From Oscillospiraceae bacterium (GTDB lineage: Bacteria; Bacillota; Clostridia; Oscillospirales; SIG627), in contig SVRV01000007.1 of NCBI GenBank assembly GCA_015064635.1, forward strand, positions 20,602 to 84,601: DNA of 64,000 nt. The letters run 5' to 3'. Below are positions 1 through 14,065 of the stretch, one piece after another (the first letter of the stretch is position 1; the number at the start of each line of letters is the position of its first letter). The notes below the pieces were generated by a model. That model did no database searches. It saw only the letters and a program-made list of their open reading frames with translations, and had not been told where the DNA came from. Position numbers and translations under genes: made by a program.

Positions 1-2582
1 GTCTTATATTCACGAGACGCCTTGCTGTAATACTTGATCTGAACACCTTCAAGTGCGGGGATTGCTATTGACCAGTCGCCGTCATAACTCTTAGCAACAA
101 CAAGCGCTGTACCGCCAACCTCTGCAACCTTTTCGGGAGGCATAATACTTGTCTTTGTAGCAACAACTGTAAAGAGAAGCTTTACGTATTCGGGAGCACT
201 GTCTGTAAGAACACCGTCTGTGCCATACTTCTTATTATCACTTACTGTAATAATATAATCATATACACCCGAATCATCGAAAACGATGCCCTGAGTCTTA
301 TCAACAGCCGTACCGTCTGCCTTTGAAACGGTATATTCAAATTCATTACCGTCTCTTATAGCAACAAGGTCGGCAAAATCAAAGGTGTAATCGCCGGTTG
401 TATCAAGGTCAATGGTAAGAGTTTGCACTTTTCCATCAATAATGTCAAATGCTGTGGCAAGTCCTATACCTTCTGCCAATTGGGTGTAGCTGAGCTCGGG
501 ACGAACGTTGCTGTAGGATGTAACTGCAAATTCGGGAACTGCAAGTGAATCTGCGTGAGTTCCGTTAGAATTGTCATAGGTATAAATTCTTGTTGTTGTG
601 CCCATTGTGGTAAGAGATGCAACGCTGTAAGGAATCTCTGTCTTGTTTGTTCTGTTGTCATTGATTGTGGGAACACTTACAGTATTACCCTGCTCCTGAG
701 GCATATATGCTATACCGAGACAGAACCAATCCTTATTTGAGCCTCCGTCAAGGGACATATTGTGCTTGTAATCAGCCTTTGCAAGTACGGCTGTTACAAC
801 AGAACTTGCATCGCTGGGAACGTACTGCTTGTAATCAGAGCATACCCATGCATACTGATTAAATTCTCCGTCAATGGTAATGGGAGTTGATTCTCCGGTT
901 TCCTCAGCCATTACAAGAACGCTGAATCCCATGAGAGTCTTGGAGGTGTCGTGAACTGTTGCCTGAGTAGGCTTTGTAATGATGTTGGTGTCTCTGAAGG
1001 TTACTTCCTTTGCCGAACCTATCTGTACGGTTGCTACAGCTCCGCCCACAAAGGTGGAATTGTCAAAAAGGAACTTACCGGTTCTTGCATACATTGCAAT
1101 ACGTCCGCCCGATATCTTGGAATTGAGTATCTGACAGTCACCGTCGGCAAGCACTGCACAGCAGATATTGTAGTACCAGTCCTTTGAGCCTGACACGTCG
1201 GCCTGCACGTTACCGTATGCCGTTGAAAGAAGCTGATACTGGTACATACCTGCAAAGGAGAAGTTGGGACAAACTATTTGCACGTTGTCAAGAGTTCCGT
1301 TGTTCATTTCAATGAATCCCGCAACCCAATTTGATTTGCAAATATCATTAGGCCATGTAACAGTAAAGCCGTTACCGTAGATAGCATATCCGTTTGATAC
1401 GCTGATAGCAGAGCCTGCTGTTGTATCGTTAAGAAGTACAACGTTGTTTGAGGTTGCGTTTATAATGCCTGTGGTGTTGACGGCATTTACTACCTCAAGA
1501 TAAAGCTCTGTGGGGATATTCTCGCCCTCGTTTACGGTCACCTTTACTGTACCCGTACCGGAGAACTTAAGGCTGCCGTTTGTCCAATCGGAGGTGTTTG
1601 CCGTAAACGTACCTGTTGCACTTCCTTCAATGCCTTCAACCGTTACATTTACCTTTGCACTGTCGATAACACCCTCGCCGGATGCCGCAAAGAGTGAGCT
1701 CATTGCAACATTGTTGGAGTTACCTATGCGGTAGAGGAACTTATCTGTTTCGGTGAACTTGTTGTTGAACTTATCAGCGGCTTTAACTTCAACTTCCGCT
1801 GTTGTTGCAAGGTTGTTGCCTTCCTTGATTGTAACAGCAGCACTTCCGACATTTTCGAAGGTTACTGTGCTCTGTGTCCAGTCCTCGGTATTTGCCGCAT
1901 ATGTAACATTCTCGCTTACGGTTACTGTTACAAGAGAGCTGTCAATTTCAACGCCCTCTGCAGCATTGAAAAGCTGACCGAGTGCTACAGTATCTCCCGA
2001 ATAAGCCTCAGTAAGGGTACCGAGCTCAAACTTTTCAATCTGTCTGAAAAGTCCCGAGGAGGGGTCTCTTTCTTTTATTGCTTCGTCTGTAATCTCAATT
2101 GTCTTACCGTGGATGGTATCGCCCGCTTTATTAATTGCGTAAGGTGTTACAGTAATTTTAACGTCTGTACCTACCCAATTTGTTGCGGTAAACAACATTT
2201 CATCTCCGAAAAGATATGCACCGCCAAGCTGGTCGGGAGTATATGTTGTAGCGGTACCGTTTGAATTGGTTACCTTCATTGAAGAATAAACTGTTGTTTT
2301 ACTGCGAACCTGTGTAGCCGGCTCTTTTGAACCGCTTATAGATGAAACCGTTATTGACAAACCTACTTCCTCGTACTTCAGGCTGTCAATTGCAGCGTAA
2401 ACATGAACAGGGAAATAGGATACTCCATCCTGAACCTTCTCATCCAAGTTGTACACTACAAGCATTTTCTGCATTATTTCTGTGGAATTTATTTCCTCTG
2501 CCATAGCAGAAAAAGACATTCCAAGCAATACCATAAGTACAGAAAGAGCAATAGTCAAAAATCTTGTAATTCTTTTAGTCAT
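1..2582 (-). CDS. Large secreted surface protein, 3' end cut by the window edge (signal peptide, ~135-aa shared N-terminal module, Ig-like segments, parallel beta-helix-like region)
   Basis: Absent from the supplied ORF track because it has no stop inside the window. Manual minus-strand translation from ATG 2582..2580 (GGAG RBS upstream) gives MTKRITRFLTIALSVLMVLLGMSFSAMAEE... and stays open for ~860 codons to position 1. It has a hydrophobic signal peptide. Later segments such as NNVVLLNDTTAGSAISVSNGYAIYGNGFTV and ILNSKISGGRIAMYARTGKFLFDNSTFVGG look like beta-helix turns. Confidence 0.8.
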   Translation of the reverse strand, partial: MTKRITRFLTIALSVLMVLLGMSFSAMAEEINSTEIMQKMLVVYNLDEKVQDGVSYFPVHVYAAIDSLKYEEVGLSITVSSISGSKEPATQVRSKTTVYSSMKVTNSNGTATTYTPDQLGGAYLFGDEMLFTATNWVGTDVKITVTPYAINKAGDTIHGKTIEITDEAIKERDPSSGLFRQIEKFELGTLTEAYSGDTVALGQLFNAAEGVEIDSSLVTVTVSENVTYAANTEDWTQSTVTFENVGSAAVTIKEGNNLATTAEVEVKAADKFNNKFTETDKFLYRIGNSNNVAMSSLFAASGEGVIDSAKVNVTVEGIEGSATGTFTANTSDWTNGSLKFSGTGTVKVTVNEGENIPTELYLEVVNAVNTTGIINATSNNVVLLNDTTAGSAISVSNGYAIYGNGFTVTWPNDICKSNWVAGFIEMNNGTLDNVQIVCPNFSFAGMYQYQLLSTAYGNVQADVSGSKDWYYNICCAVLADGDCQILNSKISGGRIAMYARTGKFLFDNSTFVGGAVATVQIGSAKEVTFRDTNIITKPTQATVHDTSKTLMGFSVLVMAEETGESTPITIDGEFNQYAWVCSDYKQYVPSDASSVVTAVLAKADYKHNMSLDGGSNKDWFCLGIAYMPQEQGNTVSVPTINDNRTNKTEIPYSVASLTTMGTTTRIYTYDNSNGTHADSLAVPEFAVTSYSNVRPELSYTQLAEGIGLATAFDIIDGKVQTLTIDLDTTGDYTFDFADLVAIRDGNEFEYTVSKADGTAVDKTQGIVFDDSGVYDYIITVSDNKKYGTDGVLTDSAPEYVKLLFTVVATKTSIMPPEKVAEVGGTALVVAKSYDGDWSIAIPALEGVQIKYYSKASREYK

Positions 2583-3288
2583 GCTTTTTATCTCCTGTTT
2601 TCTTTATTATTTTCTCATATGCAACCTCAGCCGATTCAACGTCCTTGTTGCATCTTATAACGTAAAACCTTGTTGTTGCCATAATCTTGCCTATCAGCTC
2701 AACGCTTTTTATCAAAGCCGCAGGGGCTGACGGCTTATAGGTTTGTGACAAAAGTTTTCTGAATGTGTCGCCCTTGAATTCTTCGCACTCGTTGGTTTCC
2801 GAGCGTTCAATAAAGCAGATTGCAGACAGCCGTGTTTTGGAATTGGTCTGCAAATTTTCCTTACCTGCCCAAGGGGTACCGTATGCAAAAATTCCCTCCT
2901 CGGTCACTCTAACAAGAGGCTTATCACCGTTTACAACGGTCATTTTATCTCCGAGGTGCTTTTTCCAATTCATCATATGGGTGGTCTTTCCCACACCGCT
3001 TTTTGCAAGAAAAGCAATCCCCTCGCCTTCAACGTCGATAACTACGCCGTGCATAAGTATTCCGTCACGGTAAGGGAGCCACTCGGCTATTTTACGATAA
3101 ACAGCCAGGCTTTCAAGATACCCTTTATTGGTTATCTTTTCACTTTCCTCTTTTTGAATTTCCTCATCGGTTACGCTCACCGTTATGTCCGCAGTCCTCG
3201 TGCTTACATAATCGGCACACATTCTTTCCAGGTATTCATATTTGTTGTCAATTTGAATACCAAATTCGGCAAGCTCTACATTTATCAT
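2575..3288 (-). CDS. HPr-kinase-like P-loop protein (cytoplasmic, function unknown)
   Basis: I place the start at MINVELAEFG (ATG 3288..3286), 1 nt after the SLH gene stop. The longer 266-aa track version overlaps that gene. It has a Walker-A-like AKSGVGKTTH followed by VVNGDKPLV and YGTPWAGK, the pattern of the HprK C-terminal / HprK-related kinase fold. There is no signal peptide. Its stop overlaps the start of the downstream gene by 8 nt. Confidence 0.6.
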   Translation of the reverse strand: MINVELAEFGIQIDNKYEYLERMCADYVSTRTADITVSVTDEEIQKEESEKITNKGYLESLAVYRKIAEWLPYRDGILMHGVVIDVEGEGIAFLAKSGVGKTTHMMNWKKHLGDKMTVVNGDKPLVRVTEEGIFAYGTPWAGKENLQTNSKTRLSAICFIERSETNECEEFKGDTFRKLLSQTYKPSAPAALIKSVELIGKIMATTRFYVIRCNKDVESAEVAYEKIIKKTGDKKHD

Positions 3289-3289
3289 G

Positions 3290-4186
3290 TTACTTTGCCT
3301 TGTATTCAATAAAACGCTTGAGAATTGTCGCCATTTCGGCTCTTGTAAGTGTATCCTGGGGTGCAAGTGTGTCAACGGTCTTGCCGTTTATAAGCTTATT
3401 TGCAACCGCCCATTTCATTGCACTCAATGCCCAGGATGATACCTTATCCGCATCCTCATAGCTTGTTATTTCAAAGGAAACGTCATTCAGGCTGATTTCG
3501 TTATTGTAATTATAGAGCATAACAGCCATTTGCTCTCTTGTTATTTCTCTGTCGGGAGCAAACTTGTTGTCACCAACACCGCCGACAACCTTATTCTCAA
3601 AGCCCCATGCCGCCGCCTTGGCGTACCAAGCATCTGCCGCCACGTCAACAAAAGGAGTTCCGACAGCTTCTGGCTCTTTTTCAAGTCTGTAAATTATTGT
3701 TATTGCCATTCCTCTTGTAACCGAAGCATCGGGAGCAAATTCGGTGTCCGAGGTGCCCATCATTATCTTGTTGTTGTAAGCATAAACAACATTGTCATAA
3801 AACCAATCACCCGGCTTTACGTCAGCAAACTCGGGAGCCTTTGTTTCCTCAGGCTGAGTTGTAGGTTCTGACGGTTTGGGAGTGGGTTTAGGGTTGGGTT
3901 TGGGATTCGGCTTGGGTGTAGGTGTTTCCGTATCAGTATCCGCATCGGGAGTTGTATCCGTATCGGGGATTGTGTCCATGTCGGGATTTGTGTCCGTGTC
4001 GGGATTTGTGTCCGTGTCGGGATTTGTGTCCGTGTCGGGATTTGTGTCTGGTTTTGGATTTGCGGGAACACCGTCAAATATGATACTTGAATCTATCTCT
4101 CCCGAATCCTCCGCTGTTAAATCTGCAAAAGCAACAGTGTTTAAGAGTAGCGAAATAATAGAAACAATTATAAGTGCTTTTTTCAT
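3290..4186 (-). CDS. S-layer homology (SLH) domain cell-wall anchor protein with acidic/proline-rich repeat stalk
   Basis: The real start is MKKALIIVSIISLLLNTVAFA (ATG 4186..4184, GGAGG RBS). The 349-aa track ORF reads through the upstream hairpin. Order of parts: signal peptide, ~25-aa N-terminal segment, (DTNPDT)n and (PKPN)n linkers, then three SLH-like repeats (FADVKPGDWFYDNVVYAY.., FVDVAADAWYAKAAAWG.., YEDADKVSSWALSAMKWA..). Confidence 0.85.
   Translation of the reverse strand: MKKALIIVSIISLLLNTVAFADLTAEDSGEIDSSIIFDGVPANPKPDTNPDTDTNPDTDTNPDTDTNPDMDTIPDTDTTPDADTDTETPTPKPNPKPNPKPTPKPSEPTTQPEETKAPEFADVKPGDWFYDNVVYAYNNKIMMGTSDTEFAPDASVTRGMAITIIYRLEKEPEAVGTPFVDVAADAWYAKAAAWGFENKVVGGVGDNKFAPDREITREQMAVMLYNYNNEISLNDVSFEITSYEDADKVSSWALSAMKWAVANKLINGKTVDTLAPQDTLTRAEMATILKRFIEYKAK
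3945..4052. repeat. 18-bp in-frame tandem repeat (~6 copies, TCGGGATTTGTGTCCGTG on + strand) encoding (PDTDTN)n
   Basis: Three perfect adjacent copies at 3981..4034 are flanked by degenerate copies. The repeat lies inside the SLH gene linker. Confidence 0.9.
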
Positions 4187-4204
4187 TTTTCCTCCAAAGT
4201 ATAA

Positions 4205-4233
4205 ACGGCAGGCAGTTGTAAACCGCCTGCCGT
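4205..4233 (-). terminator. Hairpin (9-bp GC-rich stem) between the 45-aa ORF and the SLH gene; possible attenuator or partial terminator
   Basis: ACGGCAGGC..11 nt..GCCTGCCGT. In the minus sense it is followed by TTTATACTTT, which is only moderately T-rich. Confidence 0.45.
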
Positions 4234-4271
4234 CAACTAACAAATTGTTATTTACGCAAGGAAAACTGTAA

Positions 4272-4409
4272 TTATCTGAGGCTCCAGATTGAGGAATCGC
4301 CGTTTCCGCCAACGGTACCTTCTTCGCCACCGTCTTCAAGACTGGTCTTGATTATGTCTTCCTCTGAAAACTCAATTATTTCAAGTTCGGGTGAAATGTA
4401 CTCTTTCAT
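4272..4409 (-). CDS. Small acidic peptide, 45 aa (MKEYISPELEIIEFSEEDIIKTSLEDGGEEGTVGGNGDSSIWSLR)
   Basis: Below the 60-aa cutoff of the ORF track. ATG 4409..4407 has a GGAGG (extended AAGGAGG) Shine-Dalgarno core 8 nt upstream, and the start lies 13 nt after the stop of the 862-aa gene. TAA stop at 4274..4272 is followed by a hairpin. No signal peptide; strongly acidic. Confidence 0.6.
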   Translation of the reverse strand: MKEYISPELEIIEFSEEDIIKTSLEDGGEEGTVGGNGDSSIWSLR

Positions 4410-4422
4410 TATTTTTTCCTCC

Positions 4423-7011
4423 TTAGTCTCTGAAAAGGGCTGAGCCCGACATCTTATTTTTGATTATTTTATCGGTCATGGTTGTTTCCTTACCGAGAAT
4501 TTCATTGCCTTCAAGGTCAACCGCATAAGGTGTTATAATAATCTTTGCATTAGCGTTTGTATACACATCGGCATTAAGAAGGATTTCACATCCGAATACA
4601 TACTCACCGCCAAGCTGTTCGGCTGTATAAACCGTTTCAGCTGTTTCTGCCGCATTTGTAACCTTCATGCTGCTATATACTGTGGTTGTGCTGAGCTTCT
4701 GTGTCTGCTCAAGGTAATTGCCGTCCATATCAATAACAGTTACCTTGAAGCCTACCTCGCTGTACTTGAGAGTATCAACAGCCGCACAAACAGTAAGTCT
4801 GTTATAGCCTTCCTTAGCTGCCATGTTGTTGACAACAAGGAGCTTCTGCATAATTTCTACCTTTTCGGCAGGAGTATAATCAAAATCATTTTCCTCGCTG
4901 ACAGACCAATCGGTTCCGTTCTCAACATACTCACCGTTTACAAGCTCTGTTTCAAAAAGCTTAAGGTTAAGTCCGAGAGTTGCACCCTCCTCAGCGATTT
5001 CAAAGGATTCCGCACCGAAGGGATTGAAGGATTCATCGGCAGCAAGTGCTTCAAGAACTGCCTGCTTTGCTTCTTCGTTGAATGAAGGATTGTTCAAAAG
5101 GAACTCTTCATCGTTATCGCACATTACTCTGTAAATTGCACGGAGAACATCCTCGGAAAGAACTACAGCAACGCCGTCGAAGGACTGAACCATGAGAACC
5201 GCGTCAAGATAGTTGCAGGTCCATAAGGGGTTAATCTGTTCAAGCAAATCCATAACTCTTACGGATTCACCCGCCTTGATGTTCACGATACCCATGGGGA
5301 TAGTACCGTATGAACCGTAGTTACCGAGAAGAATCGCCGATACATCCTTATCGGATGAAACAAGGAAGTCGGGGTTGTAGTATGCATAAGGAGCATTGAG
5401 AGCTGACTCATAATCCTCAACAGTCTTGAAATTCATACCGTATACAGATGCTTCGGGGTTGTTGAGGTTGTTGTAGATAGCTTCTATAAGGTCGCCCTTA
5501 TACTCAGGGTTTGAATCGGCAAAGAAGGCATCAAGTGCCGCCTTGTCCAGTGAAGAAGATTCATAGAGAGGAACTGTGGGATAGGATATGAAGTTTGTCT
5601 CCTCACCGATGTCAAACTTCTCGCCTGTCTTTACAGGCTTACCGTCTCCGTCAAGAGTTGTCTCATAAAGGTCAACGCCCAATGTAAGACCGGTTGCTTC
5701 CTCTACCTTTTCAAAGGATTCTGCACCAAGGGGATTTGCAGATGAAAGAAGGAGATTGAATACTGCTTCCTCATCATATTCGCCCTCGCCCGCAACCTTA
5801 TGGTATGCACGGAGAACATCCTCTGTAACGGGGATTGCAACACACTTAAATTCTTTAACAAGAAGAACTATGTCGGCGTATGTGAAATTAGCCCATGCCT
5901 TGTATGCGGGAATGGTTGCCGCTGTCTCCATTACGTTTACGGGAACTCCCGCCTTCATGCTGACTATACCTGCGGGGATAGTACCGTATGAACCGTAGTT
6001 GCCTACAAGAAGTACGCAAACATCTGTTTCGGATACTATTTCAAAATCTACTATGTAGTTTGCATAGGGAGCGTTGATTGCGGTCTCGTAATCCTCTGTT
6101 GCAGTATATACCATGCCGAATGCCGCATTCTCGGGATTTTCAAGTGCATCGTAAACAGCATCCACTACATCTCCGCCGTACTGCGCGTTGCCTGCATCAA
6201 AGAAAGCTTCAAGCTCTTCCTTTGTCATTTCGCGTGAATCGTACACGGGAACTTCGGGATAGTAAACGAACTCTTCCTTTTCAACTACCTCATACTTTAC
6301 TTCTGTTCTTTCGAACTTGCCCTCCGAAACCTCAACGGATTCGTAAACATCAAGTCCTACGCTGAGGGGAGCTGAACCCTCTACCTTTTCAAATGACTCC
6401 GCACCGAGAGGATTAGCCATGTCAAGAAGCTCAGCAAGAACTGCCTCTTCATTGTACTCACCCTCGCCCGCAACCGCGTGATATGCACGGAGAACATCCT
6501 CTGTAACGGGGATTGCAACACATCTGAATTCGCCTACAAGGAGAACTATATCCGCATATGTGAATCTTGCCCAAGCCGCACAGCCGGGAAGCTTTGAAGC
6601 GGTCTCCATTACATTTACAGGCTCATTCGCCTTAAGGTTTACAATTCCCACGGGGATAGTACCGTATGAACCGTAGTTGCCTACAAGGAGAACTGCCGCA
6701 TCCGACTTTGAAACAATTTCAAAATCTACTATGTAGTTTGCATAAGGCTTGGTTATTGCTGTCTCATAATCTTCAACAGCTGTATAAACCATACCAAAGG
6801 CTTCGTCCTTGGTTTCAAGTGCATCGTAAAGGTCGCCTATGAGGTCGCCCTTATACTCAACATTACCATCGTCAAAAAATGCTTCAAGCTCTGCCGCTGT
6901 CATTTCGCGTGCTTCATAGGGAGGTGTCAATTCTTCAGCAAACGCCGAAAGAGAGAACACAACAACCGCCATCATAACAGCAAGCAATGTGAATTTGATC
7001 TTTCTGCTCAT
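4423..7011 (-). CDS. Secreted 862-aa protein: signal peptide, three ~225-aa tandem repeats of an unrecognised domain, and a C-terminal ~135-aa module
   Basis: Signal peptide MSRKIKFTLLAVMMAVVVFSLSAFA. Repeats cover about aa 29-251, 252-477 and 478-715, each carrying ELEAFFD.GN, DYETAI..PYANYIVDFEIVS, GNYGSYGTIP.GIV and EDVLRAYH motifs. The C-terminal module resembles the N-terminus of the 1..2582 protein. Confidence 0.85.
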   Translation of the reverse strand: MSRKIKFTLLAVMMAVVVFSLSAFAEELTPPYEAREMTAAELEAFFDDGNVEYKGDLIGDLYDALETKDEAFGMVYTAVEDYETAITKPYANYIVDFEIVSKSDAAVLLVGNYGSYGTIPVGIVNLKANEPVNVMETASKLPGCAAWARFTYADIVLLVGEFRCVAIPVTEDVLRAYHAVAGEGEYNEEAVLAELLDMANPLGAESFEKVEGSAPLSVGLDVYESVEVSEGKFERTEVKYEVVEKEEFVYYPEVPVYDSREMTKEELEAFFDAGNAQYGGDVVDAVYDALENPENAAFGMVYTATEDYETAINAPYANYIVDFEIVSETDVCVLLVGNYGSYGTIPAGIVSMKAGVPVNVMETAATIPAYKAWANFTYADIVLLVKEFKCVAIPVTEDVLRAYHKVAGEGEYDEEAVFNLLLSSANPLGAESFEKVEEATGLTLGVDLYETTLDGDGKPVKTGEKFDIGEETNFISYPTVPLYESSSLDKAALDAFFADSNPEYKGDLIEAIYNNLNNPEASVYGMNFKTVEDYESALNAPYAYYNPDFLVSSDKDVSAILLGNYGSYGTIPMGIVNIKAGESVRVMDLLEQINPLWTCNYLDAVLMVQSFDGVAVVLSEDVLRAIYRVMCDNDEEFLLNNPSFNEEAKQAVLEALAADESFNPFGAESFEIAEEGATLGLNLKLFETELVNGEYVENGTDWSVSEENDFDYTPAEKVEIMQKLLVVNNMAAKEGYNRLTVCAAVDTLKYSEVGFKVTVIDMDGNYLEQTQKLSTTTVYSSMKVTNAAETAETVYTAEQLGGEYVFGCEILLNADVYTNANAKIIITPYAVDLEGNEILGKETTMTDKIIKNKMSGSALFRD

Positions 7012-7108
7012 CTTTTTCCTCTTTTCTTATAAAGTTATAAATTTTATTGGTTACGTTTTGAATAGTGTGCACGGGCACACTGCAAGCGACCATACACTCG
7101 CATGATAT

Positions 7109-7137
7109 GTTATATCACAATTTAAATAAAAAGTCAA
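7109..7137 (-). promoter_or_regulatory. Sigma-A type promoter for the surface-protein operon (TTGACT-17-TATAAC, with TGn extended -10)
   Basis: Minus-strand reading: TTGACTttttatttaaattgTGaTATAAC. It lies about 100 nt upstream of the 7011 start. The 5' UTR holds a 7-bp hairpin at 7064..7081. Confidence 0.5.
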
Positions 7138-7186
7138 CAAAAATGATATAAATATGTAATATATTTTGCTTTTTTTGTCAAAACCA

Positions 7187-7241
7187 CAAAAACGCAAAAA
7201 GCAAAGTTACCCTTTTTGTGAATTCTCACAAAAAGGGTAAC
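7187..7241 (-). terminator. Rho-independent terminator after the TIM-barrel gene
   Basis: Perfect stem GTTACCCTTTTTGTGA / TCACAAAAAGGGTAAC, followed in the minus sense by a T-rich tract. Confidence 0.8.
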
Positions 7242-7247
7242 GAGGGT

Positions 7248-8081
7248 TTACTGACCGAGAGTTTTAAGGTATTCGCGGCTCATTTTTACAGCTTCGAGAG
7301 CGGGGCGGTCAAGCGACTGGTCCTGCTCAACGATTATGTATTCTGTCGATGCCTTATCACATGCCTCGAGTATTGCGGGCATATTCTGTCTGCCCTGACC
7401 GAGGGGAAGGAACTTGAACTCATTTTCTTCTCTGGACTTCGGCTTTATCTCGTTGCCGTTTTCGTCAATAAGAGCATAGTTAGGTCCTGCACCAAGCTCC
7501 TTGCAGTCAAAGTCCTTGAGATGAACAATTGTGTTTCTGTCTGCATACTTATTTATATACTCTACGGGGTCATAGCCTGCGTAGTGTACCCAGCAGGTAT
7601 CAAGCTCGGGATTGATAAGTGTGCTGTCAAGCTCTGAATAGAGCTTGTCGAGAATTATTTCGCCGTCAATCTTCTGAAATTCAAAATCGTGGTTGTGGTA
7701 GAGAAGCTTGATTCCCGCATCCGCAAGAAGCTTTCCTACAACCTTAATATCGGCTACAAGCTTTTCAAAGCCGTCCTTTGTTGTTATCTTTTCGGGTGCC
7801 ATCCAGGGAATAGCGCAATATTCGGCACCTATTGTCTTGAGAAACTTTATATTTTCCTCGGGAGCGGTGAGGAACACATCATGTGTCTGGTGAACAGAGC
7901 GACACTTGAGTCCGTGCTTGTCAAGGAGTGCCTTTATCTCCTCTGCACTCTTTCCGAAATAGCCTGCAAACTCAACGTAGTCATAGCCCATTGCCTTAAC
8001 TGCGCCGAGTGTTGAGTCCATATCACGCTCCATATCCTGGCGTACTGAATAAAGCTGTAATCCTACCTTGAAATTCTTCAT
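7248..8081 (-). CDS. Sugar phosphate isomerase/epimerase (xylose isomerase-like TIM barrel)
   Basis: 277 aa. The N-terminus KVGLQLYSVRQDM...GYDYVEFAGYFG is typical of this family. AGGAG RBS. Confidence 0.7.
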   Translation of the reverse strand: MKNFKVGLQLYSVRQDMERDMDSTLGAVKAMGYDYVEFAGYFGKSAEEIKALLDKHGLKCRSVHQTHDVFLTAPEENIKFLKTIGAEYCAIPWMAPEKITTKDGFEKLVADIKVVGKLLADAGIKLLYHNHDFEFQKIDGEIILDKLYSELDSTLINPELDTCWVHYAGYDPVEYINKYADRNTIVHLKDFDCKELGAGPNYALIDENGNEIKPKSREENEFKFLPLGQGRQNMPAILEACDKASTEYIIVEQDQSLDRPALEAVKMSREYLKTLGQ

Positions 8082-8099
8082 AATAATACTCCTTTCAGT

Positions 8100-9086
8100 T
8101 TATAACGTTGCGGCTACAACCGCCTTAATTGTATGCATTCTGTTTTCTGCCTCGTCAAATACGATGCTCTGCTCACTTTCGAACACAGCGTTTGTTACCT
8201 CAAGCTCGGTGAGTCCGAACTTTTCATGAACCGCTCTTGCCACTGCGGTGTTCAGGTCATGATAAGCGGGAAGACAATGCATGAACACTGTTTCGGGCTT
8301 TGCCATGGACATGAGCTTTTCGTTTACCTGGTAAGGAAGAAGTGCTGTTATTCTCTCCTTCCACACCTCATCGGGCTCGCCCATTGATACCCAAACATCG
8401 GTATAGATAGCATCGGCATCGGCAACCGCCTCGGCGGGATTTTCGGTGTATTTTATAATCGCACCGCTCTTTGCTGCAAGCTTTTCGGCGGCATCCTGAA
8501 GCTCTTTTGATGGGAAATATTCTTTTGGTGCACACACTGTGAAGTTAACGCCCATAATGGCCGAGCCGATAAGCAGTGAGTTACCCATATTGAATCTGGC
8601 ATCTCCCATATAGACGAGATTTATTCCCTTGAGCTTTCCGAAATGCTCACGGATTGTGAGGAAATCGGCGAGAATCTGTGTGGGGTGGAATTCGTTTGTA
8701 AGTCCGTTCCACACGGGGACACCTGCGTATTTTGCCAGGTCCTCAACTATCTCCTGACCGAATCCTCTGTACTCGATACCGTCAAACATTCTGCCAAGCA
8801 CTCTTGCGGTATCGGCAATGCTCTCCTTTTTGCCAATCTGTGAGCCTGTGGGGTCAAGATATGTAACGCCCGCACCAAGGTCACGGCAAGCAACCTCGAA
8901 GGCACATCTTGTTCTTGTACTTGTCTTTTCAAATATAAGGGCAATGTTCTTGCCCTCGCAAAGTCTGTGAGGGATACCCTTCTTCTTTTCGTCCTTAAGC
9001 TTTGATGCAAGGTCAAGAAGGTATTCCATCTCCTCCGCTGTATAATCAAGAAGCTTCAGAAAGCTTCTTCCCTTAAGTGAAATCAT
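8100..9086 (-). CDS. argF: Ornithine carbamoyltransferase
   Basis: 328 aa with [17 protein letters not shown] and HCLP motifs. Confidence 0.92.
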
Positions 9087-9272
9087 TGTATATCTCCTTT
9101 AAGTTATTATAACAGGGCTTTGCCCTGTACCCACTTAAAACCTTTTTATAAAAAGGTTTTAAGAATTCCAAAAATTTTAATGATGTTTATTCTTTAGCTT
9201 TGTTACCTTATTCTATGGAAGAAAACCGAAGGTTTTCAACCACAATTATTCATTATTCATTATTCATTATTC
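9087..9272. repeat. Intergenic mosaic hairpin element, locus A (argD/argF spacer)
   Basis: Hairpins at 9113..9127 (CAGGGCtttGCCCTG), 9135..9162 (28-nt palindrome) and 9221..9237 (GAAAACCgaaGGTTTTC), plus (ATTATTC)x4 at 9245..9272. The units recur at loci B, C, D and E. Confidence 0.85.
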
Positions 9273-10426
9273 ATTGCTTCAAGCAATACCTCTACCGCAG
9301 CCTTCAGCTCGTCCCATGTGATATTGAGGGGAGGAAGAAGTCTTACCTTATTTTTAGCCTTTATTGCAATAACGCCCTTTTCACGGCAAGCGGAAAGTAC
9401 CTCGGCAACGTCCTTTTCGCACTCGATGCCTATCATAAGACCCGCACCGCTGACACTCTTGACACCGTCGGCTCCGTTGAAGGAATCGAAGATGTATTTG
9501 CTCTTTTCTCTGACCTCGGCAAGAAGTGTGTCGTCAATTCTCGAAACAATGGAAAGTGCGCCTGCACAAGCCACGGGATTACCTCCGAAGGTTGAACCGT
9601 GGTCCCCGGGCTTCAGTGTATCCTTCACCTTTTCGCCAAGCATTGCAAGTCCAAGGGGAAGTCCTCCGCCAATGCCCTTTGCGGTGGTAACAATATCGGG
9701 TGTAATTCCGTAATTCATATAGTTATAAAGCGCTCCGCAACGTCCGTTACCCGTCTGCACCTCGTCAACAATAAGAAGGATATCTTCCTTTTTGCCTATC
9801 TCTGCAATGGCTTCAACAAAATCCTTTTCAAGAGGAAGAACTCCGCCCTCACCTTGGACGGTTTCAAACATAATAGCGGCAACCTTATTTTCCGAAACAA
9901 GACGCTTTACGTCATCAATATTATTCGCCTCGGCATAAACAAAGCCTTCTGTCAAGGGGAGGAAATCCTTATGGAAGGTATCCTGACCCGTTGCGGCAAG
10001 CATTGAAATGGTTCTGCCGTGGAAGCTGTTTTTGAGTGTTATTACCGTATTGTATTCCGCACCTTTTTTTTCTGCGGCATACTTTCTTGCCACCTTTACG
10101 GCGGTCTCGTTTGCCTCGGCACCCGAATTGGAGAAGAACACCTTCTTCATGCCCGTTCTCTTACAAAGTGTCTCCGCAAGCTTTGCGCAAGGCTCTGAAT
10201 AGAAGAGATTGGAGGTATGATGAATCTTACCGAGCTGTTCTGTTACAGCCTTTATCCACTCGTCATCGGCAACTCCGAAAACATTAACTGCAATACCTGT
10301 GCCAAGGTCTGTATATTCTTTTCCGTTTTCGTCAACTACCTTTGCGCCCTTTCCCGAAACAAGTGTTACGGGGAATCGTCCGTAGGTATTTGCGACATAT
10401 TCTTTATCAAGCTCTTGTATACTCAT
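9260..10426 (-). CDS. argD: Acetylornithine aminotransferase
   Basis: 388 aa class-III aminotransferase (DIVTTAKGIGGGLP lysine context). ATGA overlap with the argB stop. Confidence 0.9.
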   Translation of the reverse strand: MSIQELDKEYVANTYGRFPVTLVSGKGAKVVDENGKEYTDLGTGIAVNVFGVADDEWIKAVTEQLGKIHHTSNLFYSEPCAKLAETLCKRTGMKKVFFSNSGAEANETAVKVARKYAAEKKGAEYNTVITLKNSFHGRTISMLAATGQDTFHKDFLPLTEGFVYAEANNIDDVKRLVSENKVAAIMFETVQGEGGVLPLEKDFVEAIAEIGKKEDILLIVDEVQTGNGRCGALYNYMNYGITPDIVTTAKGIGGGLPLGLAMLGEKVKDTLKPGDHGSTFGGNPVACAGALSIVSRIDDTLLAEVREKSKYIFDSFNGADGVKSVSGAGLMIGIECEKDVAEVLSACREKGVIAIKAKNKVRLLPPLNITWDELKAAVEVLLEAMNNE

Positions 10427-11298
10427 TTGTTCGCCCTCTTTTCAACCACCATTGTACCTGCGCCCTCATCGGTCAGCGTTTCGATAAGTATTGAGTGAGG
10501 AATTCTTCCGTCCATTATGAATACCTTCTTAACGCCACGCTTTATCGCTTCGATACAGCATTCAACCTTGGGTATCATACCGCCCGATATAATACCGTCG
10601 TCAAAGAGCTTCTTTGCATCCTCAAGGTCAATTTCGGAAATAAGTGAGGATGGGTCATCCTTGTCCCGAAGTATTCCTGCGATATCGGTCATTGCAATAA
10701 GGCTCTCCGCCTCCATTGCACCTGCGATATATGATGCGGCGGTATCCGCATTGATGTTGTACACATTGCCATCCTTATCACATCCCACAGTTGAAACAAC
10801 GGGGATATATCCCTTTTCGAGAAGGTCAATGATGGGCTGTACATTTACATTTGTGATTCTGCCAACATATCCGAGTCTTTCATCCTTCATTTCGGCTTCA
10901 ATCATGCGTCCGTCAAGTCCGGATATACCCATTGCCTTACCGCCCTTGGATTCAAGGAGGTTTACAAGTCCTTTATTTATTTTGCCCGCAAGCACCATAA
11001 GTGCTATTTCGGCGGTTTCCTTATCCGTGACTCTGAGTCCGTCAACAAATTTGGTTTCCTTGCCGACACGGTTGAGCATATCTGTAATTTCGGGTCCTCC
11101 GCCGTGCACAAGCACGACCTTGACACCGATAAGGTGCATGAGCACAATGTCCTCCATGACATTCTGCTTGAGCTCCTCGTTTATCATGGCGTTTCCGCCG
11201 TATTTCACAACGAGTATCTTTCCGTTGTAATTCTGTATGTAAGGAAGCGCTTGGGTAAGTATTTCCGCACGCTGTGCATTTGTAACATTTAATGACAT
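10423..11298 (-). CDS. argB: Acetylglutamate kinase
   Basis: Start at MSLNVTNAQR (ATG 11298..11296, AAGGAGA RBS). AAK-family motifs VVKYGGNAM and LVHGGGPE. The longer track start falls inside the repeat element. Confidence 0.9.
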   Translation of the reverse strand: MSLNVTNAQRAEILTQALPYIQNYNGKILVVKYGGNAMINEELKQNVMEDIVLMHLIGVKVVLVHGGGPEITDMLNRVGKETKFVDGLRVTDKETAEIALMVLAGKINKGLVNLLESKGGKAMGISGLDGRMIEAEMKDERLGYVGRITNVNVQPIIDLLEKGYIPVVSTVGCDKDGNVYNINADTAASYIAGAMEAESLIAMTDIAGILRDKDDPSSLISEIDLEDAKKLFDDGIISGGMIPKVECCIEAIKRGVKKVFIMDGRIPHSILIETLTDEGAGTMVVEKRANK

Positions 11299-11516
11299 AA
11301 ATTCTCCTTTTAACCGGGGGGGCTTTGCCCTTGAACCCACTAAGAAACTATTTAATGTGTTTTTTATTATAATTCTTTGCTACCCTATCCTACGGAAGAT
11401 TTGCTGAAAGCAAATCAACCATAACGTTTGCGAAGCAAACATTTCACGTGACTTCAGTCACATTTCACCCATCCGAAGGATGGATTTCACTGACATAATG
11501 GCTCCGCCATTATGTC
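11299..11516. repeat. Intergenic mosaic hairpin element, locus B (argJ/argB spacer), including a hairpin/ATTTCAC array
   Basis: Hairpins at 11398..11416, 11426..11440, 11448..11461, 11469..11483 and 11492..11516. ATTTCAC linkers (GTGAAAT in gene sense) sit at 11441, 11462 and 11484. The last hairpin overlaps the argJ stop codon. Confidence 0.9.
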
Positions 11517-12727
11517 CTGTAATCTCCGTTAATCTTTACGTAGTCATAAGTCAGGTCACAGCCCCATGCAACAGCATTTCCGTCACCCGAGTTGAGAGAT
11601 ATAAGTATTTCGATTTCCTTTTCTGTAAGCACCTTCTTGGCAATTTCCTCCGAAAAGTCGATTCCTGCACCGTTCTCGCATACCGCAACCTCGCCTGCCG
11701 CAGAGCGGAACTTTACATCCACCTTTGTAACGTCAACATCTGCACCGCTGTAACCGATAGCGCAAAGCACTCTGCCCCAGTTTGCATCGGCACCGAACAT
11801 TGCCGCCTTGGTAAGAGATGAACAGATAACGCTCTTTGCCACGACCTTGGCTGTCGCCTCGTCCTTTGCTCCGTCAACCTTGCATTCAAGAAGCTTTGTT
11901 GCGCCCTCTCCGTCTCCCGCTATCATTCGGCAAAGGTAAACTGTTACCGAGTTGAGTGCCTTCATAAAGGCATCAAAATCCTCGCCCTCGGCATCAATGA
12001 GCTTGTTGCCCGCCATACCGTTAGCCATTACGGTTACCATGTCATTTGTGGAGGTATCTCCGTCAACACTTACCATATTGAAGGTGTTTGCGATATCGCT
12101 CTTCAATGCCTTTGACAGCATTTCGGGTGATATATTACAGTCGGTAGTAATGAACACAAGCATTGTTGCCATGTTGGGATGAATCATACCCGAGCCCTTT
12201 GCTATACCGCCTATTTTACATTCAACGCCGCCGATGTCAAAGGAAAGTGCTATTTCCTTTTTAACTGTGTCTGTTGTCATTATTGCTTCAGCCGCAAGTG
12301 CACTGTTGTCGCCAAGTCCCGCAACAAGCTCTGCCATGCCGTTTTTAACGGGTGTTACGTCAAGTCTCTGACCGATAACACCGGTGGATGCAACAACCAC
12401 ATCGGTTGCGTCAATTCCAAGCTCTGCCGCTGTTATTTCACACATTTTTGTTGCAATTTCAATGCCGTCAGCGTTGCAGGTGTTTGCGTTTCCGCTGTTA
12501 CAAACTGCCGCTCTTGCATATCCGTTTGCAATATTCTGCTTTGTGACGGTGATGGGGGCACCCTTTACAAGGTTTGTAGTATATACTGCCGCAGTGGCAG
12601 CAGGAGTCTCACTCACTATAAGGGCAAGGTCTCTCTTCGTCTTACCTGCTCTGATTCCGCAATGTATTCCGTTTGCTTTAAATCCCTTTGCGGCACAAAC
12701 GCCGCCCTGTACAGACTTAATATTCAT
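11510..12727 (-). CDS. argJ: Bifunctional glutamate N-acetyltransferase / amino-acid acetyltransferase
   Basis: 405 aa ArgJ family with the self-cleavage region HPNMATMLVFITTD. Confidence 0.92.
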   Translation of the reverse strand: MNIKSVQGGVCAAKGFKANGIHCGIRAGKTKRDLALIVSETPAATAAVYTTNLVKGAPITVTKQNIANGYARAAVCNSGNANTCNADGIEIATKMCEITAAELGIDATDVVVASTGVIGQRLDVTPVKNGMAELVAGLGDNSALAAEAIMTTDTVKKEIALSFDIGGVECKIGGIAKGSGMIHPNMATMLVFITTDCNISPEMLSKALKSDIANTFNMVSVDGDTSTNDMVTVMANGMAGNKLIDAEGEDFDAFMKALNSVTVYLCRMIAGDGEGATKLLECKVDGAKDEATAKVVAKSVICSSLTKAAMFGADANWGRVLCAIGYSGADVDVTKVDVKFRSAAGEVAVCENGAGIDFSEEIAKKVLTEKEIEILISLNSGDGNAVAWGCDLTYDYVKINGDYRT

Positions 12728-12916
12728 ATATATCTCCTTAAAGTTTAGTTATCTTACGGTGTTATTTTTGGGTGAAAACCGAAACAATGCACAGTGCTCA
12801 GTGCACAATGCACAATTAAGGAAGATTTTGCGAAAGCAAAATCAGCCAAAATTATTCGTGATTCATTATTCATTATTCACTATTCATTATTCATTGCATA
12901 ACGCACAGCGTTATGC
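12728..12916. repeat. Intergenic mosaic hairpin element, locus C (argC/argJ spacer)
   Basis: A 5' UTR cassette at 12728..12783 is shared with the GH43 gene. Hairpin at 12824..12843. (ATTATTC)-type heptamers x6 at 12851..12892. Hairpin GCATAACGCacaGCGTTATGC at 12896..12916 abuts the argC stop. Confidence 0.9.
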
Positions 12917-13843
12917 CTATATCTCAAGTCCTGTTTCGGCGGGGAGTCCCATTGCAAGATTGAGACATTCTATTGCCGCACCCGATGCACCCTTACCAAG
13001 GTTGTCATACTGTGCAATAAGGAGAATTCTCTCCTCGTTGCCTGCAACGGACACGGTCATGGAATCCTTGAATCCCATAGAAAGTCCCGACACAAATCCG
13101 TCGGCTGACGCTTCGTCAATATACTTTACAAGGGGTGTGTTGTATTTATCCTTATATATCTTCTTTATATCCTCGGCGCTTCCATTAATCTGTGAAGCAA
13201 AAAGAGGTACTGTCACCGTCATACCGCTGTAAAAGTCGCTTACAACAGGCGTGAATATTGGGAATTCATCAATCCCCGTAATAGCCTTCATTTCTTTGAG
13301 ATGCTTGTGAGTCTGGGTGAGGCCGTACTGACGGGGGGCTGAAAGAAGTGTGTCTCTCTCCTCTGCCTCATACTCTGCTATCATCTTCTTACCGCCTCCG
13401 CTGTAGCCTGTAATGGAATGACAGAAGAGATTTAAGTCGGATGGAATGATTCCCGCCTTGACAAGAGGATATACAAGAGCAATAAATCCGCCTGCGTGAC
13501 AGCCGGGCACCGCAATTCTCTTGGAATTCTTGATTCTTTCCTCAAAGCTTTCGTCAAGCTCGGGGAATCCGTATGCAAATTCGGGATTGGTTCTGTGTGC
13601 CGTTGATGTGTCTATAATAACGGTACTAGGGTTATTAACCATTGCAACCGCCTCAATTGCCGCCGCATCGGGCAAGCAGAGGAAGGTCACGTCACTTTTG
13701 TTTATTATTTCGGCACGTGCCTCGGGGTCCTTACGCTTTTCCTCGGTAAGAGTGATTATTTCAAACTCACGTCTCTTTCCAAGTCGCTCGTGAATACGAA
13801 GGCCTGTCGTTCCCGCACTGCCGTCAATGAATATTTTTTTCAT
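12917..13843 (-). CDS. argC: N-acetyl-gamma-glutamyl-phosphate reductase (short type)
   Basis: Start at MKKIFIDGSAGTTGLRI (ATG 13843..13841). The 372-aa track ORF runs on into AT-rich promoter DNA. Contains the AVPGCHAGG active-site Cys region. Confidence 0.88.
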   Translation of the reverse strand: MKKIFIDGSAGTTGLRIHERLGKRREFEIITLTEEKRKDPEARAEIINKSDVTFLCLPDAAAIEAVAMVNNPSTVIIDTSTAHRTNPEFAYGFPELDESFEERIKNSKRIAVPGCHAGGFIALVYPLVKAGIIPSDLNLFCHSITGYSGGGKKMIAEYEAEERDTLLSAPRQYGLTQTHKHLKEMKAITGIDEFPIFTPVVSDFYSGMTVTVPLFASQINGSAEDIKKIYKDKYNTPLVKYIDEASADGFVSGLSMGFKDSMTVSVAGNEERILLIAQYDNLGKGASGAAIECLNLAMGLPAETGLEI

Positions 13844-13888
13844 AAAATTCGCCTCTCGTTTGATAATTATACAGTATAATAACATACT

Positions 13889-13904
13889 TTGCATAAATAT
13901 GCAA
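13889..13904. promoter_or_regulatory. Candidate ArgR (ARG-box-like) operator
   Basis: TTGCATAAATATGCAA is palindromic at 14 of 16 positions. It lies ~45 nt upstream of argC among duplicated TATAAT-containing segments. Weaker related half-sites (TGTACAGAAATACAA, TTCAAAAATATTCAAA) lie just upstream. Confidence 0.4.
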
Positions 13905-14026
13905 TAGTTTTTGAATATTTTTGAAAAATTTGTATTTCTGTACAAAAGATATACAAACAAAATTCCTATTATAGTATAATAACACTCTTTTTGGCATTTT
14001 TCAAGGGGTAAAAGGCAAAAAAATCT

Positions 14027-14065
14027 CTCACACAACCTATAAATTGCGTGAGAGAAATTCTTTTA
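14027..14065 (-). terminator. Rho-independent terminator after the DUF4838 gene
   Basis: TCTCTCAC..16 nt..GTGAGAGA, followed in the minus sense by TTTTTTT. Confidence 0.6.

Follow-up and report, generated by a model that had tools for sequence, protein, structure and literature searches.

We analyzed a 64,000-nucleotide stretch of contig SVRV01000007.1 from an Oscillospiraceae bacterium, an uncultured gut or rumen member of the Clostridia (the window, below), in which a minus-strand gene at 2575-3288 codes for a stand-alone P-loop protein of 237 amino acids (aa). Judged from its sequence and a structure model, the protein has the fold shared by HPr kinase/phosphorylase (HprK/P) and phosphoenolpyruvate carboxykinase (PEPCK), is predicted to be cytoplasmic, and is a distant homolog of LppK, the kinase of the linear polyphosphorylated peptides (LPPs). 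The LPPs are one family of RiPPs (peptides that are made by the ribosome and modified after translation) of Bacilli (Popov et al., Nat Commun 2026, PMC13381572). A 45-aa peptide encoded two genes 5' of the kinase belongs to a conserved family of LPP-like precursors. The locus is a new minimal pair of precursor and kinase within a surface-protein operon, and the kinase is a new, divergent member of its family. We consider it fairly probable that the locus as a whole is explained by an LppK-like kinase acting on an LPP-like precursor in this setting. The features of the locus are as follows.

2575..3288, minus strand: LppK-like HprK/PEPCK-fold P-loop kinase, 237 aa, PF27840 'ScmC' family (open reading frame, motifs, model, profile comparison)
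4272..4409, minus strand: LPP-like precursor peptide, 45 aa, MKEYISPELEIIEFSEEDIIKTSLEDGGEEGTVGGNGDSSIWSLR (family profile, alignment)
4204..4234, minus strand: 14-bp G+C-rich hairpin, then UUUAUACUUU (terminator-like scan, folding)
3290..4186, minus strand: SLH-domain surface protein, 298 aa (Pfam SLH 1.1e-31, three stretches; gene call of 298 aa in locus L086)
4423..7011, minus strand: secreted repeat protein with signal peptide, 862 aa (open reading frame; gene at 2194-4782 of L086)
1..2582, minus strand: 5' part (860 codons) of the gene for a 1222-aa secreted protein, continuing beyond the window (sequence; full gene at 6623-10291 of L086)
7206..7241, minus strand: terminator-like hairpin, 16 bp plus T-tract, after a TIM-barrel gene (terminator-like scan)

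The kinase gene and its fold

The open reading frame (ORF) of the kinase runs from an ATG at 3288-3286 to a TAA at 2577-2575. Its translation, LMHGVVIDVEGEGIAFLAKSGVGKTTHMMNWKKHLGDKMTVVNGDKPLVRVTEEGIFAYGTPWAGKE, contains AKSGVGKTTH, VVNGDKPLV, and YGTPWAGK in that order, as an earlier sequence-only reading of this DNA had reported. That reading had also described tight spacing on both sides, which was confirmed. The SLH gene stops with a TAA at 3292-3290, leaving a single base (3289) before the kinase ATG, and the kinase stop shares 8 nt (ATGACTAA) with the start of the 1222-aa gene (ATG 2582-2580). An 8-nt overlap with the next gene is likewise present in the syntenic locus L006. The mechanically called ORF offers an alternative start, a TTG at 3375, but M1 is invariant in 98 aligned homologs, all of which start at that Met, so the Met at 3288 is the true start. 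The kinase has 1874 homologs at 90% clustering, 1439 cluster representatives at 50% identity match at E<=1e-30, and relatives are carried by at least 580 species genomes. At least 20 independent metagenome contigs code for exactly the protein of the window. Given these homolog counts, the ORF is a real gene, far beyond chance.

An AlphaFold2 (AF2) model built on the 98 homologs reached a mean predicted local distance difference test score (pLDDT) of 94.2. In a Foldseek search of this model against the PDB, the 50 best matches were all HprK/P or ATP-dependent PEPCK, with E about 1e-6 and probability 1.0 for the top matches; no unrelated P-loop family appeared, which supports the HprK-like fold proposed earlier. 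Residues invariant among the 98 homologs are H80, S97-G98-x-G100-K101, N120-G-D-K-P124, G137, W140, and G142-K143-E144. As the fold requires, the P-loop comes after the MHG strand and the catalytic Asp (D122) after the next strand; there is no variation at H80, G98-x-G-K101-T, or D122. The segment LMHGVVIDVEGEGIAFLAKSGVGKTT aligns with a 26-letter segment of HprK.

These similarities might mean that the protein is a true HPr kinase/phosphorylase, shortened but serving carbon catabolite control. The kinase shares with HprK/P the P-loop kinase fold, the MHGV...GxSGxGK(S/T) core, and the Asp after the following strand; its P-loop matches Hpr_kinase_C (PF07475; 17.7 bits, E 0.0026) and TIGR00679 (18.2 bits), and a PDB sequence search gave HprK matches at E about 0.5. 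However, the cut-offs of the two families are 33.3 and 240 bits, and about 26 residues (78-103) alone are aligned to Hpr_kinase_C. The C-terminal half is different, and the N-terminal part is a distinct 75-aa domain in the AF2 model, not the HprK N-domain. Pfam and NCBIfam scans likewise gave no HprK N-terminal domain, and phmmer found no HPr homolog in the 64-kb window (best E 3.7), in line with the lack of both that the sequence-only reading had stated. There is no phosphotransferase system (PTS) context in the window, and the neighbors are peptide-maturation and surface genes. A classical HprK/P function was rejected on the sub-cut-off scores, the missing N-domain, and the lack of HPr in the window; this explanation is effectively refuted.

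Our results instead place the kinase with LppK. Its PF27840 membership comes from precomputed annotation only, in which the exact protein is labeled 'PF27840:ScmC (weak)' and PF27840.1 is assigned to the 99%-identical P0001 and to most of the kinase homologs. The LppK ortholog in the Paenibacillus lpp cluster L085 carries PF27840 too, there under the family name ScmC. BLASTP aligned the window kinase with this ortholog over 184 aa (E 2e-5, 18% identity) and paired D122 with the SDE Asp. By hhalign, the kinase family profile matched the ortholog with 96.6% probability (E 6.6e-10, 126 columns), and phmmer with LppK gave matches in 34 of the Clostridia loci. The earlier suggestion of a stand-alone relative, such as occur in peptide-modification clusters, is thus borne out, since PF27840 also holds LppK.

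HprK-like proteins such as ScmC and the HprK-related kinases A and B occur in peptide-maturation cassettes that also hold PqqD-type proteins. ScmC (TIGR04249) and the kinases A/B (TIGR04352/TIGR04355) are weak sequence relatives of the present family, with E down to 7.7e-7 among kinase family members, but no window-family score comes anywhere near the equivalog cut-offs. Radical-SAM/SPASM and GRASP partners are absent from the window, and among the relatives L094 alone has a radical-SAM neighbor. At 2128-5111 of L094, beside an integrase gene, lie genes for a TetR protein, a 255-aa PF27840 kinase-like protein, a 451-aa radical-SAM enzyme, and a 36-aa peptide (MEKYAKAQMEVIEFEAEDVITTSGNNGFDVDGGEEE). 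This peptide belongs to the same precursor family as that of the window, which links the family to radical-SAM chemistry, as in SynChlorMet cassettes. L094, the weak TIGR04249 match of the window kinase (18.5 bits, E 1e-3), and the naming of the Pfam family after ScmC would fit an accessory or scaffold protein of a radical-SAM peptide pathway, like ScmC of the SynChlorMet cassette. We regard such a role as highly improbable: the operon contains no radical-SAM gene, the score is far under the 125-bit cut-off, and most relatives are paired with an S24 peptidase and PqqD, not with radical SAM.

Phosphorylated lasso peptides likewise have stand-alone HprK-fold kinases (PadeK/ThcoK of paeninodin-type clusters; BsfK), whose substrates are leader-bearing ribosomal precursors. 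In these systems, binding of the YxxPxL leader by the PqqD-type B1 protein speeds phosphorylation (PMC10368454). However, the L085 lasso kinase aligned to the kinase family profile over 43 columns only, around the P-loop, and the cores of the window family have no Gly1...Asp/Glu7-9 ring pattern. Neither an Asn-synthetase-like macrolactam cyclase nor a transglutaminase-like B2 peptidase was found by phmmer with L085 queries in the window or in roughly 90 loci; because both were found in no locus, a lasso cluster of the paeninodin type was rejected.

The precursor peptide and its likely modification

The sequence-only reading had put forward the 45-aa peptide as a candidate substrate, which proved apt, as the ORF is a conserved LPP-like precursor. 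Its ATG is preceded by AGGAGG at a distance of 8 nt. Members of the family were found with an iterated hidden Markov model (HMM); an earlier strict regular expression for the leader gave too few. Besides the window, 23 loci have a precursor that the family HMM detects 5' of the kinase gene. In a collection of 5.8 billion proteins the family has 174 members, all of 30-88 aa and none annotated. The exact peptide of the window is gene-called on 16 contigs, and precursor identity among the window, L006, and other contigs is 74-89%. In the reverse direction, starting from the peptide, a PF27840-type kinase lay within 2.5 kb in three of the four sampled contexts.

An alignment of 23 peptides shows a common head, MKxYxxPxLxxIxFxxEDIIxTS, followed by a hypervariable tail. 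Two positions, D18 and S23, are invariant; I20 and T22 are nearly so, giving the consensus D-[IV]-I-x-T-S. The window peptide has a lasso/LPP-type YxxPxL leader (Y4-I-S-P7-E-L9), in agreement with the [Y/W]xxPx[L/V/I] pattern of LPP precursors, P7-x6-F14, and E-D-I-I-K-T-S, and its tail is rich in Gly, Asp, and Ser. In Bacilli, the LppA precursor carries the motif YxxPxVLxHQxIxFETxxS, and the HprK-like LppK polyphosphorylates Ser3 of the LppA core (PMC13381572). The distance from the leader Tyr to Ser23 is 19 residues in the window peptide; that from the LppA Tyr to the phosphorylated Ser3 is 18.

It is rather likely that the kinase phosphorylates the adjacent 45-aa peptide, as LppK does LppA. 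By this analogy the kinase would use ATP to place one or more phosphates on the peptide. At the leader-core junction, the invariant Ser23 (or Thr22) is the most likely acceptor.

The LPP system of Bacilli comprises further proteins: the PqqD-type LppB presents the leader, the SipW-like serine peptidase LppS cuts it, the core set also has an MsbA-like pump and an NTP-transferase, and the clusters are located in capsule loci (PMC13381572). The window locus resembles this system in the PF27840 family and HprK-like fold of its kinase, and in a precursor with a YxxPx[L/V] leader, a conserved junction Ser, and a hypervariable, Gly-rich tail. In both systems a lasso cyclase is absent and the genes are embedded in cell-envelope loci; relatives of the window kinase adjoin or are fused to a SipW-like S24/S26 peptidase, PqqD, an MsbA-like ATP-binding cassette (ABC) pump, or NTP_transf_5. 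The differences are also clear. The window kinase has 237 aa vs. 261 aa in LppK, at the low identity given above; at the junction, D-I-I-x-T-S stands in place of FET|xxS, and P-x6-F in place of P-x9-F. The window locus is without a RiPP recognition element (RRE), peptidase, exporter, and NTP-transferase, its precursor gene lies directly 3' of a large secreted-protein gene, and SLH and giant surface proteins in Clostridia take the place of the capsule loci of Bacilli. Some relatives of the window kinase add a four-transmembrane (4-TM) protein, YxxP-less leaders, or kinase-peptidase fusions.

The YxxP-less precursors were found in L013, L015, L023, L031, and L096 and start with MKAxLEIxxI.L.DIITTS. 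No PqqD gene was seen nearby in L013, L015, L023, and L031, and in these YxxP-less loci the 4-TM protein comes after the peptide. This suggests a branch with RRE-independent peptide recognition. L090 has two precursor genes (65 and 61 aa), each directly 3' of a large secreted protein, and an additional 60-aa ORF (1905-2102, 2745-2927, and 5001-5186), with a single kinase-S24 fusion gene downstream of the precursors. Other small ORFs with [YWF]xxP in kinase-PqqD-S24 loci without a recognized precursor formed no recurrent family.

Operon structure and partner genes in relatives

The precursor gene starts 13 nt after the stop of the 862-aa gene. The peptide and SLH genes are 85 nt apart, and this gap contains the hairpin at 4204..4234, which is followed by a U-tract and is the best terminator-like site in 1..8200, with a folding energy of -31.5 kcal/mol (z -4.8). 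It looks like a terminator or attenuator. A hairpin 3' of the precursor gene is a feature of the family: hairpins of at least the strength of -21 kcal/mol followed 21 of the 23 precursor genes of the other loci, vs. 1.5% of random windows. Precursor output above enzyme output is common in ribosomal-peptide operons, and a hairpin after the precursor gene fits the production of more precursor than enzyme. The operon appears to read 862-aa secreted protein, precursor, hairpin, SLH protein, kinase, and 1222-aa secreted protein, and the hairpin may let the peptide accumulate in excess over the enzyme. The hairpin at 7206..7241 probably marks the upstream operon boundary.

The whole operon is visible in L086, an identical locus that reaches past the window edge. 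Its order is argF, a xylose-isomerase-like TIM-barrel gene, the terminator, the 862-aa gene, the 45-aa ORF, the 298-aa SLH gene, the kinase gene, and the 1222-aa gene; past the latter, on the opposite strand, lie a sigma-like gene and then an FGGY kinase gene. Upstream in the window is an ordinary arginine biosynthesis operon at 8100-14035 on the minus strand (argC-like, argJ, argB, argD, and argF), and a DUF4838 protein is encoded at 14068-15999.

For comparison across genomes, neighboring ORFs were clustered in 80 genome loci from metagenome-assembled genomes of gut and rumen Clostridia, including Oscillospiraceae, Acutalibacteraceae, Faecousia, and Congzhengia, and partners were counted in the 52 GTDB loci with full flanks. 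An S24/SpI-like peptidase was present in 27 of these 52 loci, PqqD in 20, the precursor in 16, a Cu_amine_oxidN1 protein in 12, and the 4-TM protein in 9. The recurrent partners are same-strand genes. The S24/S26-like peptidase, of about 150 aa and with the motifs GDSMxPML...HR...GDNR, lies directly 3' of the kinase in relatives, and homologs of about 360 aa are fusions of the kinase with the S24 peptidase. Further fusions within the tight kinase family are to PqqD (P0454), NTP_transf_5 (P0370), and a glycosyltransferase (P0397). The PqqD protein of the relatives has about 90 aa and matches PF05402 at 56-65 bits. Some loci also contain an ABC exporter, next to the kinase in several relatives, the 4-TM protein, and Cu_amine_oxidN1 or SLH surface proteins. 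With LppS, LppB, and LppD as queries, phmmer picked out the peptidase, PqqD, and ABC neighbors in the Clostridia loci. In one sub-group, a Cys-rich protein of 64-77 aa (CxxCKTGK...C..C, zinc-ribbon-like) is encoded between the 4-TM protein and the kinase (L017 1431-1697, L019 1660-1935, L021 3026-3298).

The comparison of contexts called for by the sequence-only reading thus shows homologs that are recurrently linked to peptide genes and surface-protein genes. That reading had also taken the coupling of the kinase gene to imply stoichiometric co-expression with exported proteins. This implication is borne out only in part. The coupling itself holds in the window, but the exported neighbors vary among loci, and a strong hairpin lies between the peptide gene and the SLH-kinase portion of the operon. 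The partners that recur with the kinase are instead the precursor peptide, the SipW-like S24/S26 peptidase, and PqqD.

Several observations weigh against an LPP-like kinase and precursor pair. The window kinase is only 18% identical to LppK, and its peptide does not carry the LPP-specific leader signature Px9Fx[T/A] (FET|xxS). PqqD, the S24/SpI-like peptidase, the ABC exporter, the NTP-transferase, and the 4-TM partner were found neither in the 64-kb window nor in the L086 operon, where HMMs built from neighbor loci and Paenibacillus Lpp proteins were used for the window; the Cu_amine_oxidN1 partner was also absent from the whole window (HMMs from neighbor loci). Among the full-flank loci, 15 of 52 have none of the five counted partners (peptidase, PqqD, precursor, Cu_amine_oxidN1 protein, and 4-TM protein). 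The closest relatives, L005 and L007 (58-64% identity), hold the kinase alone, with no precursor nearby.

The lone kinase genes of L005 and L007 are located at 8001-8693, at the same chromosomal site as in the window, between argF and a sigma-like gene, immediately 3' of argF in L007 and a few genes past it in L005. Because these two loci have the kinase but no precursor, the kinase can persist without a substrate in cis. The surface-protein and peptide genes therefore look as if they had been inserted or deleted as a whole block around a kinase gene that stayed in place. The more distant relatives L009, L010, and L011 (53-55% identity) have a fuller partner set; from these sequences we infer that the reduced locus of the window is a derived state.

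The reduced state could also mean that an LPP-like cluster has decayed and left the gene behind as an orphan remnant, still expressed by coupling without serving a dedicated pathway any more, and maybe inactive or merely ATP-binding. No leader peptidase, RRE, exporter, or TM partner is encoded in cis and the nearest relatives carry the kinase alone, as expected of a remnant. However, the catalytic-core residues are all invariant in the 98 sequences, down to 48% identity and including the kinase-alone loci; the exact protein recurs on the 20 or more contigs mentioned above, and the precursor itself is conserved (74-89% identity). We therefore consider a remnant unlikely. Under the preferred explanation of a kinase with its own peptide substrate, the phosphopeptide of the relatives would be cut by the SipW-like S24/S26 leader peptidase, often with PqqD presenting it, and sometimes exported by the MsbA-like ABC pump. 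The window locus would have lost the peptidase, PqqD, and pump genes in cis, and therefore either processing takes place in trans or the end point may be the phosphorylated full-length peptide.

Surface proteins and the LPP-like branch of Clostridia

The SLH protein consists of a signal peptide, (P/T)DTDTN repeats, a Pro/Lys linker, and three SLH repeats, and the 862-aa secreted protein had no Pfam or NCBIfam match. Across the family, the precursor gene starts -4 to +36 nt after the gene of a large same-strand protein with a Sec signal in 24 of 28 non-redundant cases. The N-terminal parts of these large proteins differ, and C-terminal domains of about 110-160 aa are common within three to four groups. 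The C-terminal domain of the 862-aa protein is common to its counterparts in L006, L018, L021, and L009, and in this group it reads '...TVYTAEQLGGxYxFG...ITPYAxDLxGNxIxG...'. A similar sequence, seen by eye only, is present near the N-terminus of the 1396-aa L006 ortholog of the 1222-aa protein. The protein 3' of the kinase in L006 (7750-11940) ends in a Hint/intein-like module (CLAEGTLITLADG), and the C-terminus of the 1222-aa protein of L086 gave a Pfam Hint match at E 9e-4, below the cut-off.

The exported neighbors vary by locus and include SLH, Cu_amine_oxidN1, giant beta-helix, and small lipoprotein-like proteins. In kinase-PqqD-S24 loci without a recognizable precursor, an 81-97-aa protein with a lipoprotein-type signal and a TDTD- or SSES-rich body is encoded just 5' of the kinase (L053 7754-7999, L072 7676-7999, L081 1434-1733, L061 7671-7955, L078 7597-7929). 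The (P/T)DTDTN repeats in the SLH proteins of the window (residues about 45-90) and L006 are similar to these TDTD-rich bodies.

The tail of each peptide was compared with the first mature residues, after the signal peptide, of the next secreted protein. The likeness was strongest in L048 (7329-7463 and the next gene; z 8.1, ELPPVVI; GLDEDELPPVVI vs. GLEEGELPPVVI). It was also significant in L019 (122-364 and 434-1276; z 3.1, p 0.008; TGVIVPIP vs. TGVIVPLP) and L006 (5698-5832 and 5869-7041; z 2.9, p 0.014; GEVGGTGDSTI vs. GGTGSVADSTI). In the window (4272-4409 and 3290-4186) it was borderline (z 1.9, p 0.056; GNGDSSI vs. GEIDSSI, that is, G..DSSI), and in most other loci it was not significant. 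Because of this uneven pattern, we treat the likeness as a side observation outside the main claim.

Another explanation is that the kinase in fact acts on the exported proteins encoded with it, or on proteins or peptides from elsewhere in the genome; among the candidates are the giant secreted proteins and, in the SLH protein, the N-terminal region rich in Thr and Asp. It would account for the tight coupling of the kinase (1-nt gap to the SLH gene, 8-nt overlap with the 1222-aa gene), the kinases without a precursor in L005 and L007, the lipoprotein-like TDTD/SSES-rich small proteins just 5' in kinase-PqqD-S24 loci, and the resemblance, in several loci, of the peptide tail to the post-signal segment of the next secreted protein. 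However, that resemblance is lacking in most loci, and the families of the exported neighbors are unrelated from one locus to another, in contrast to the recurring peptide, S24, and PqqD. Sec exports its substrates in unfolded form, and phosphorylation of them in the cytoplasm is not known to be an established route, which counts against this explanation. In addition, the characterized family members modify leader-bearing precursor peptides (PMC13381572; PMC10368454). Substrates other than the 45-aa peptide, the exported proteins included, are the main rival explanation but appear unlikely, and the 45-aa peptide is preferred.

The embedding among surface-protein genes suggests that the product of the kinase and its precursor acts at the cell envelope. 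A more specific and quite speculative idea, to which we give a small chance, is that the phosphopeptide is a dedicated partner of the large secreted proteins and not a free antimicrobial or signaling peptide. It would then serve as a linker, placeholder strand, or attachment handle that couples the giant adhesin-like proteins to wall-anchored proteins. This idea draws on the position of the precursor beside a giant Sec-exported gene, the conserved C-terminal domains, and the tail mimicry of the SLH, stalk, or lipoprotein anchor in several loci. If true, it would represent a new kinase-dependent surface-display system in gut Clostridia, and the LPP family would gain a function.

The description of LPPs in 2026 rested mostly on Bacilli, with 126 peptidase homologs in the main cluster (PMC13381572). 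The present locus points to a much larger, divergent LPP-like branch in uncultured gut and rumen Clostridia. The new architectures of this branch include fusions of the kinase with the peptidase, PqqD, or a nucleotidyltransferase, RRE-less loci, YxxP-less leaders, and a radical-SAM variant; in addition, the precursor is systematically coupled to giant secreted proteins and wall anchors. For biochemistry, the precursor and kinase of the window form a minimal case with two components, and the coupling of precursor and surface genes gives a testable lead on the role of phosphorylated linear peptides, which may lie in the cell envelope or in surface display.

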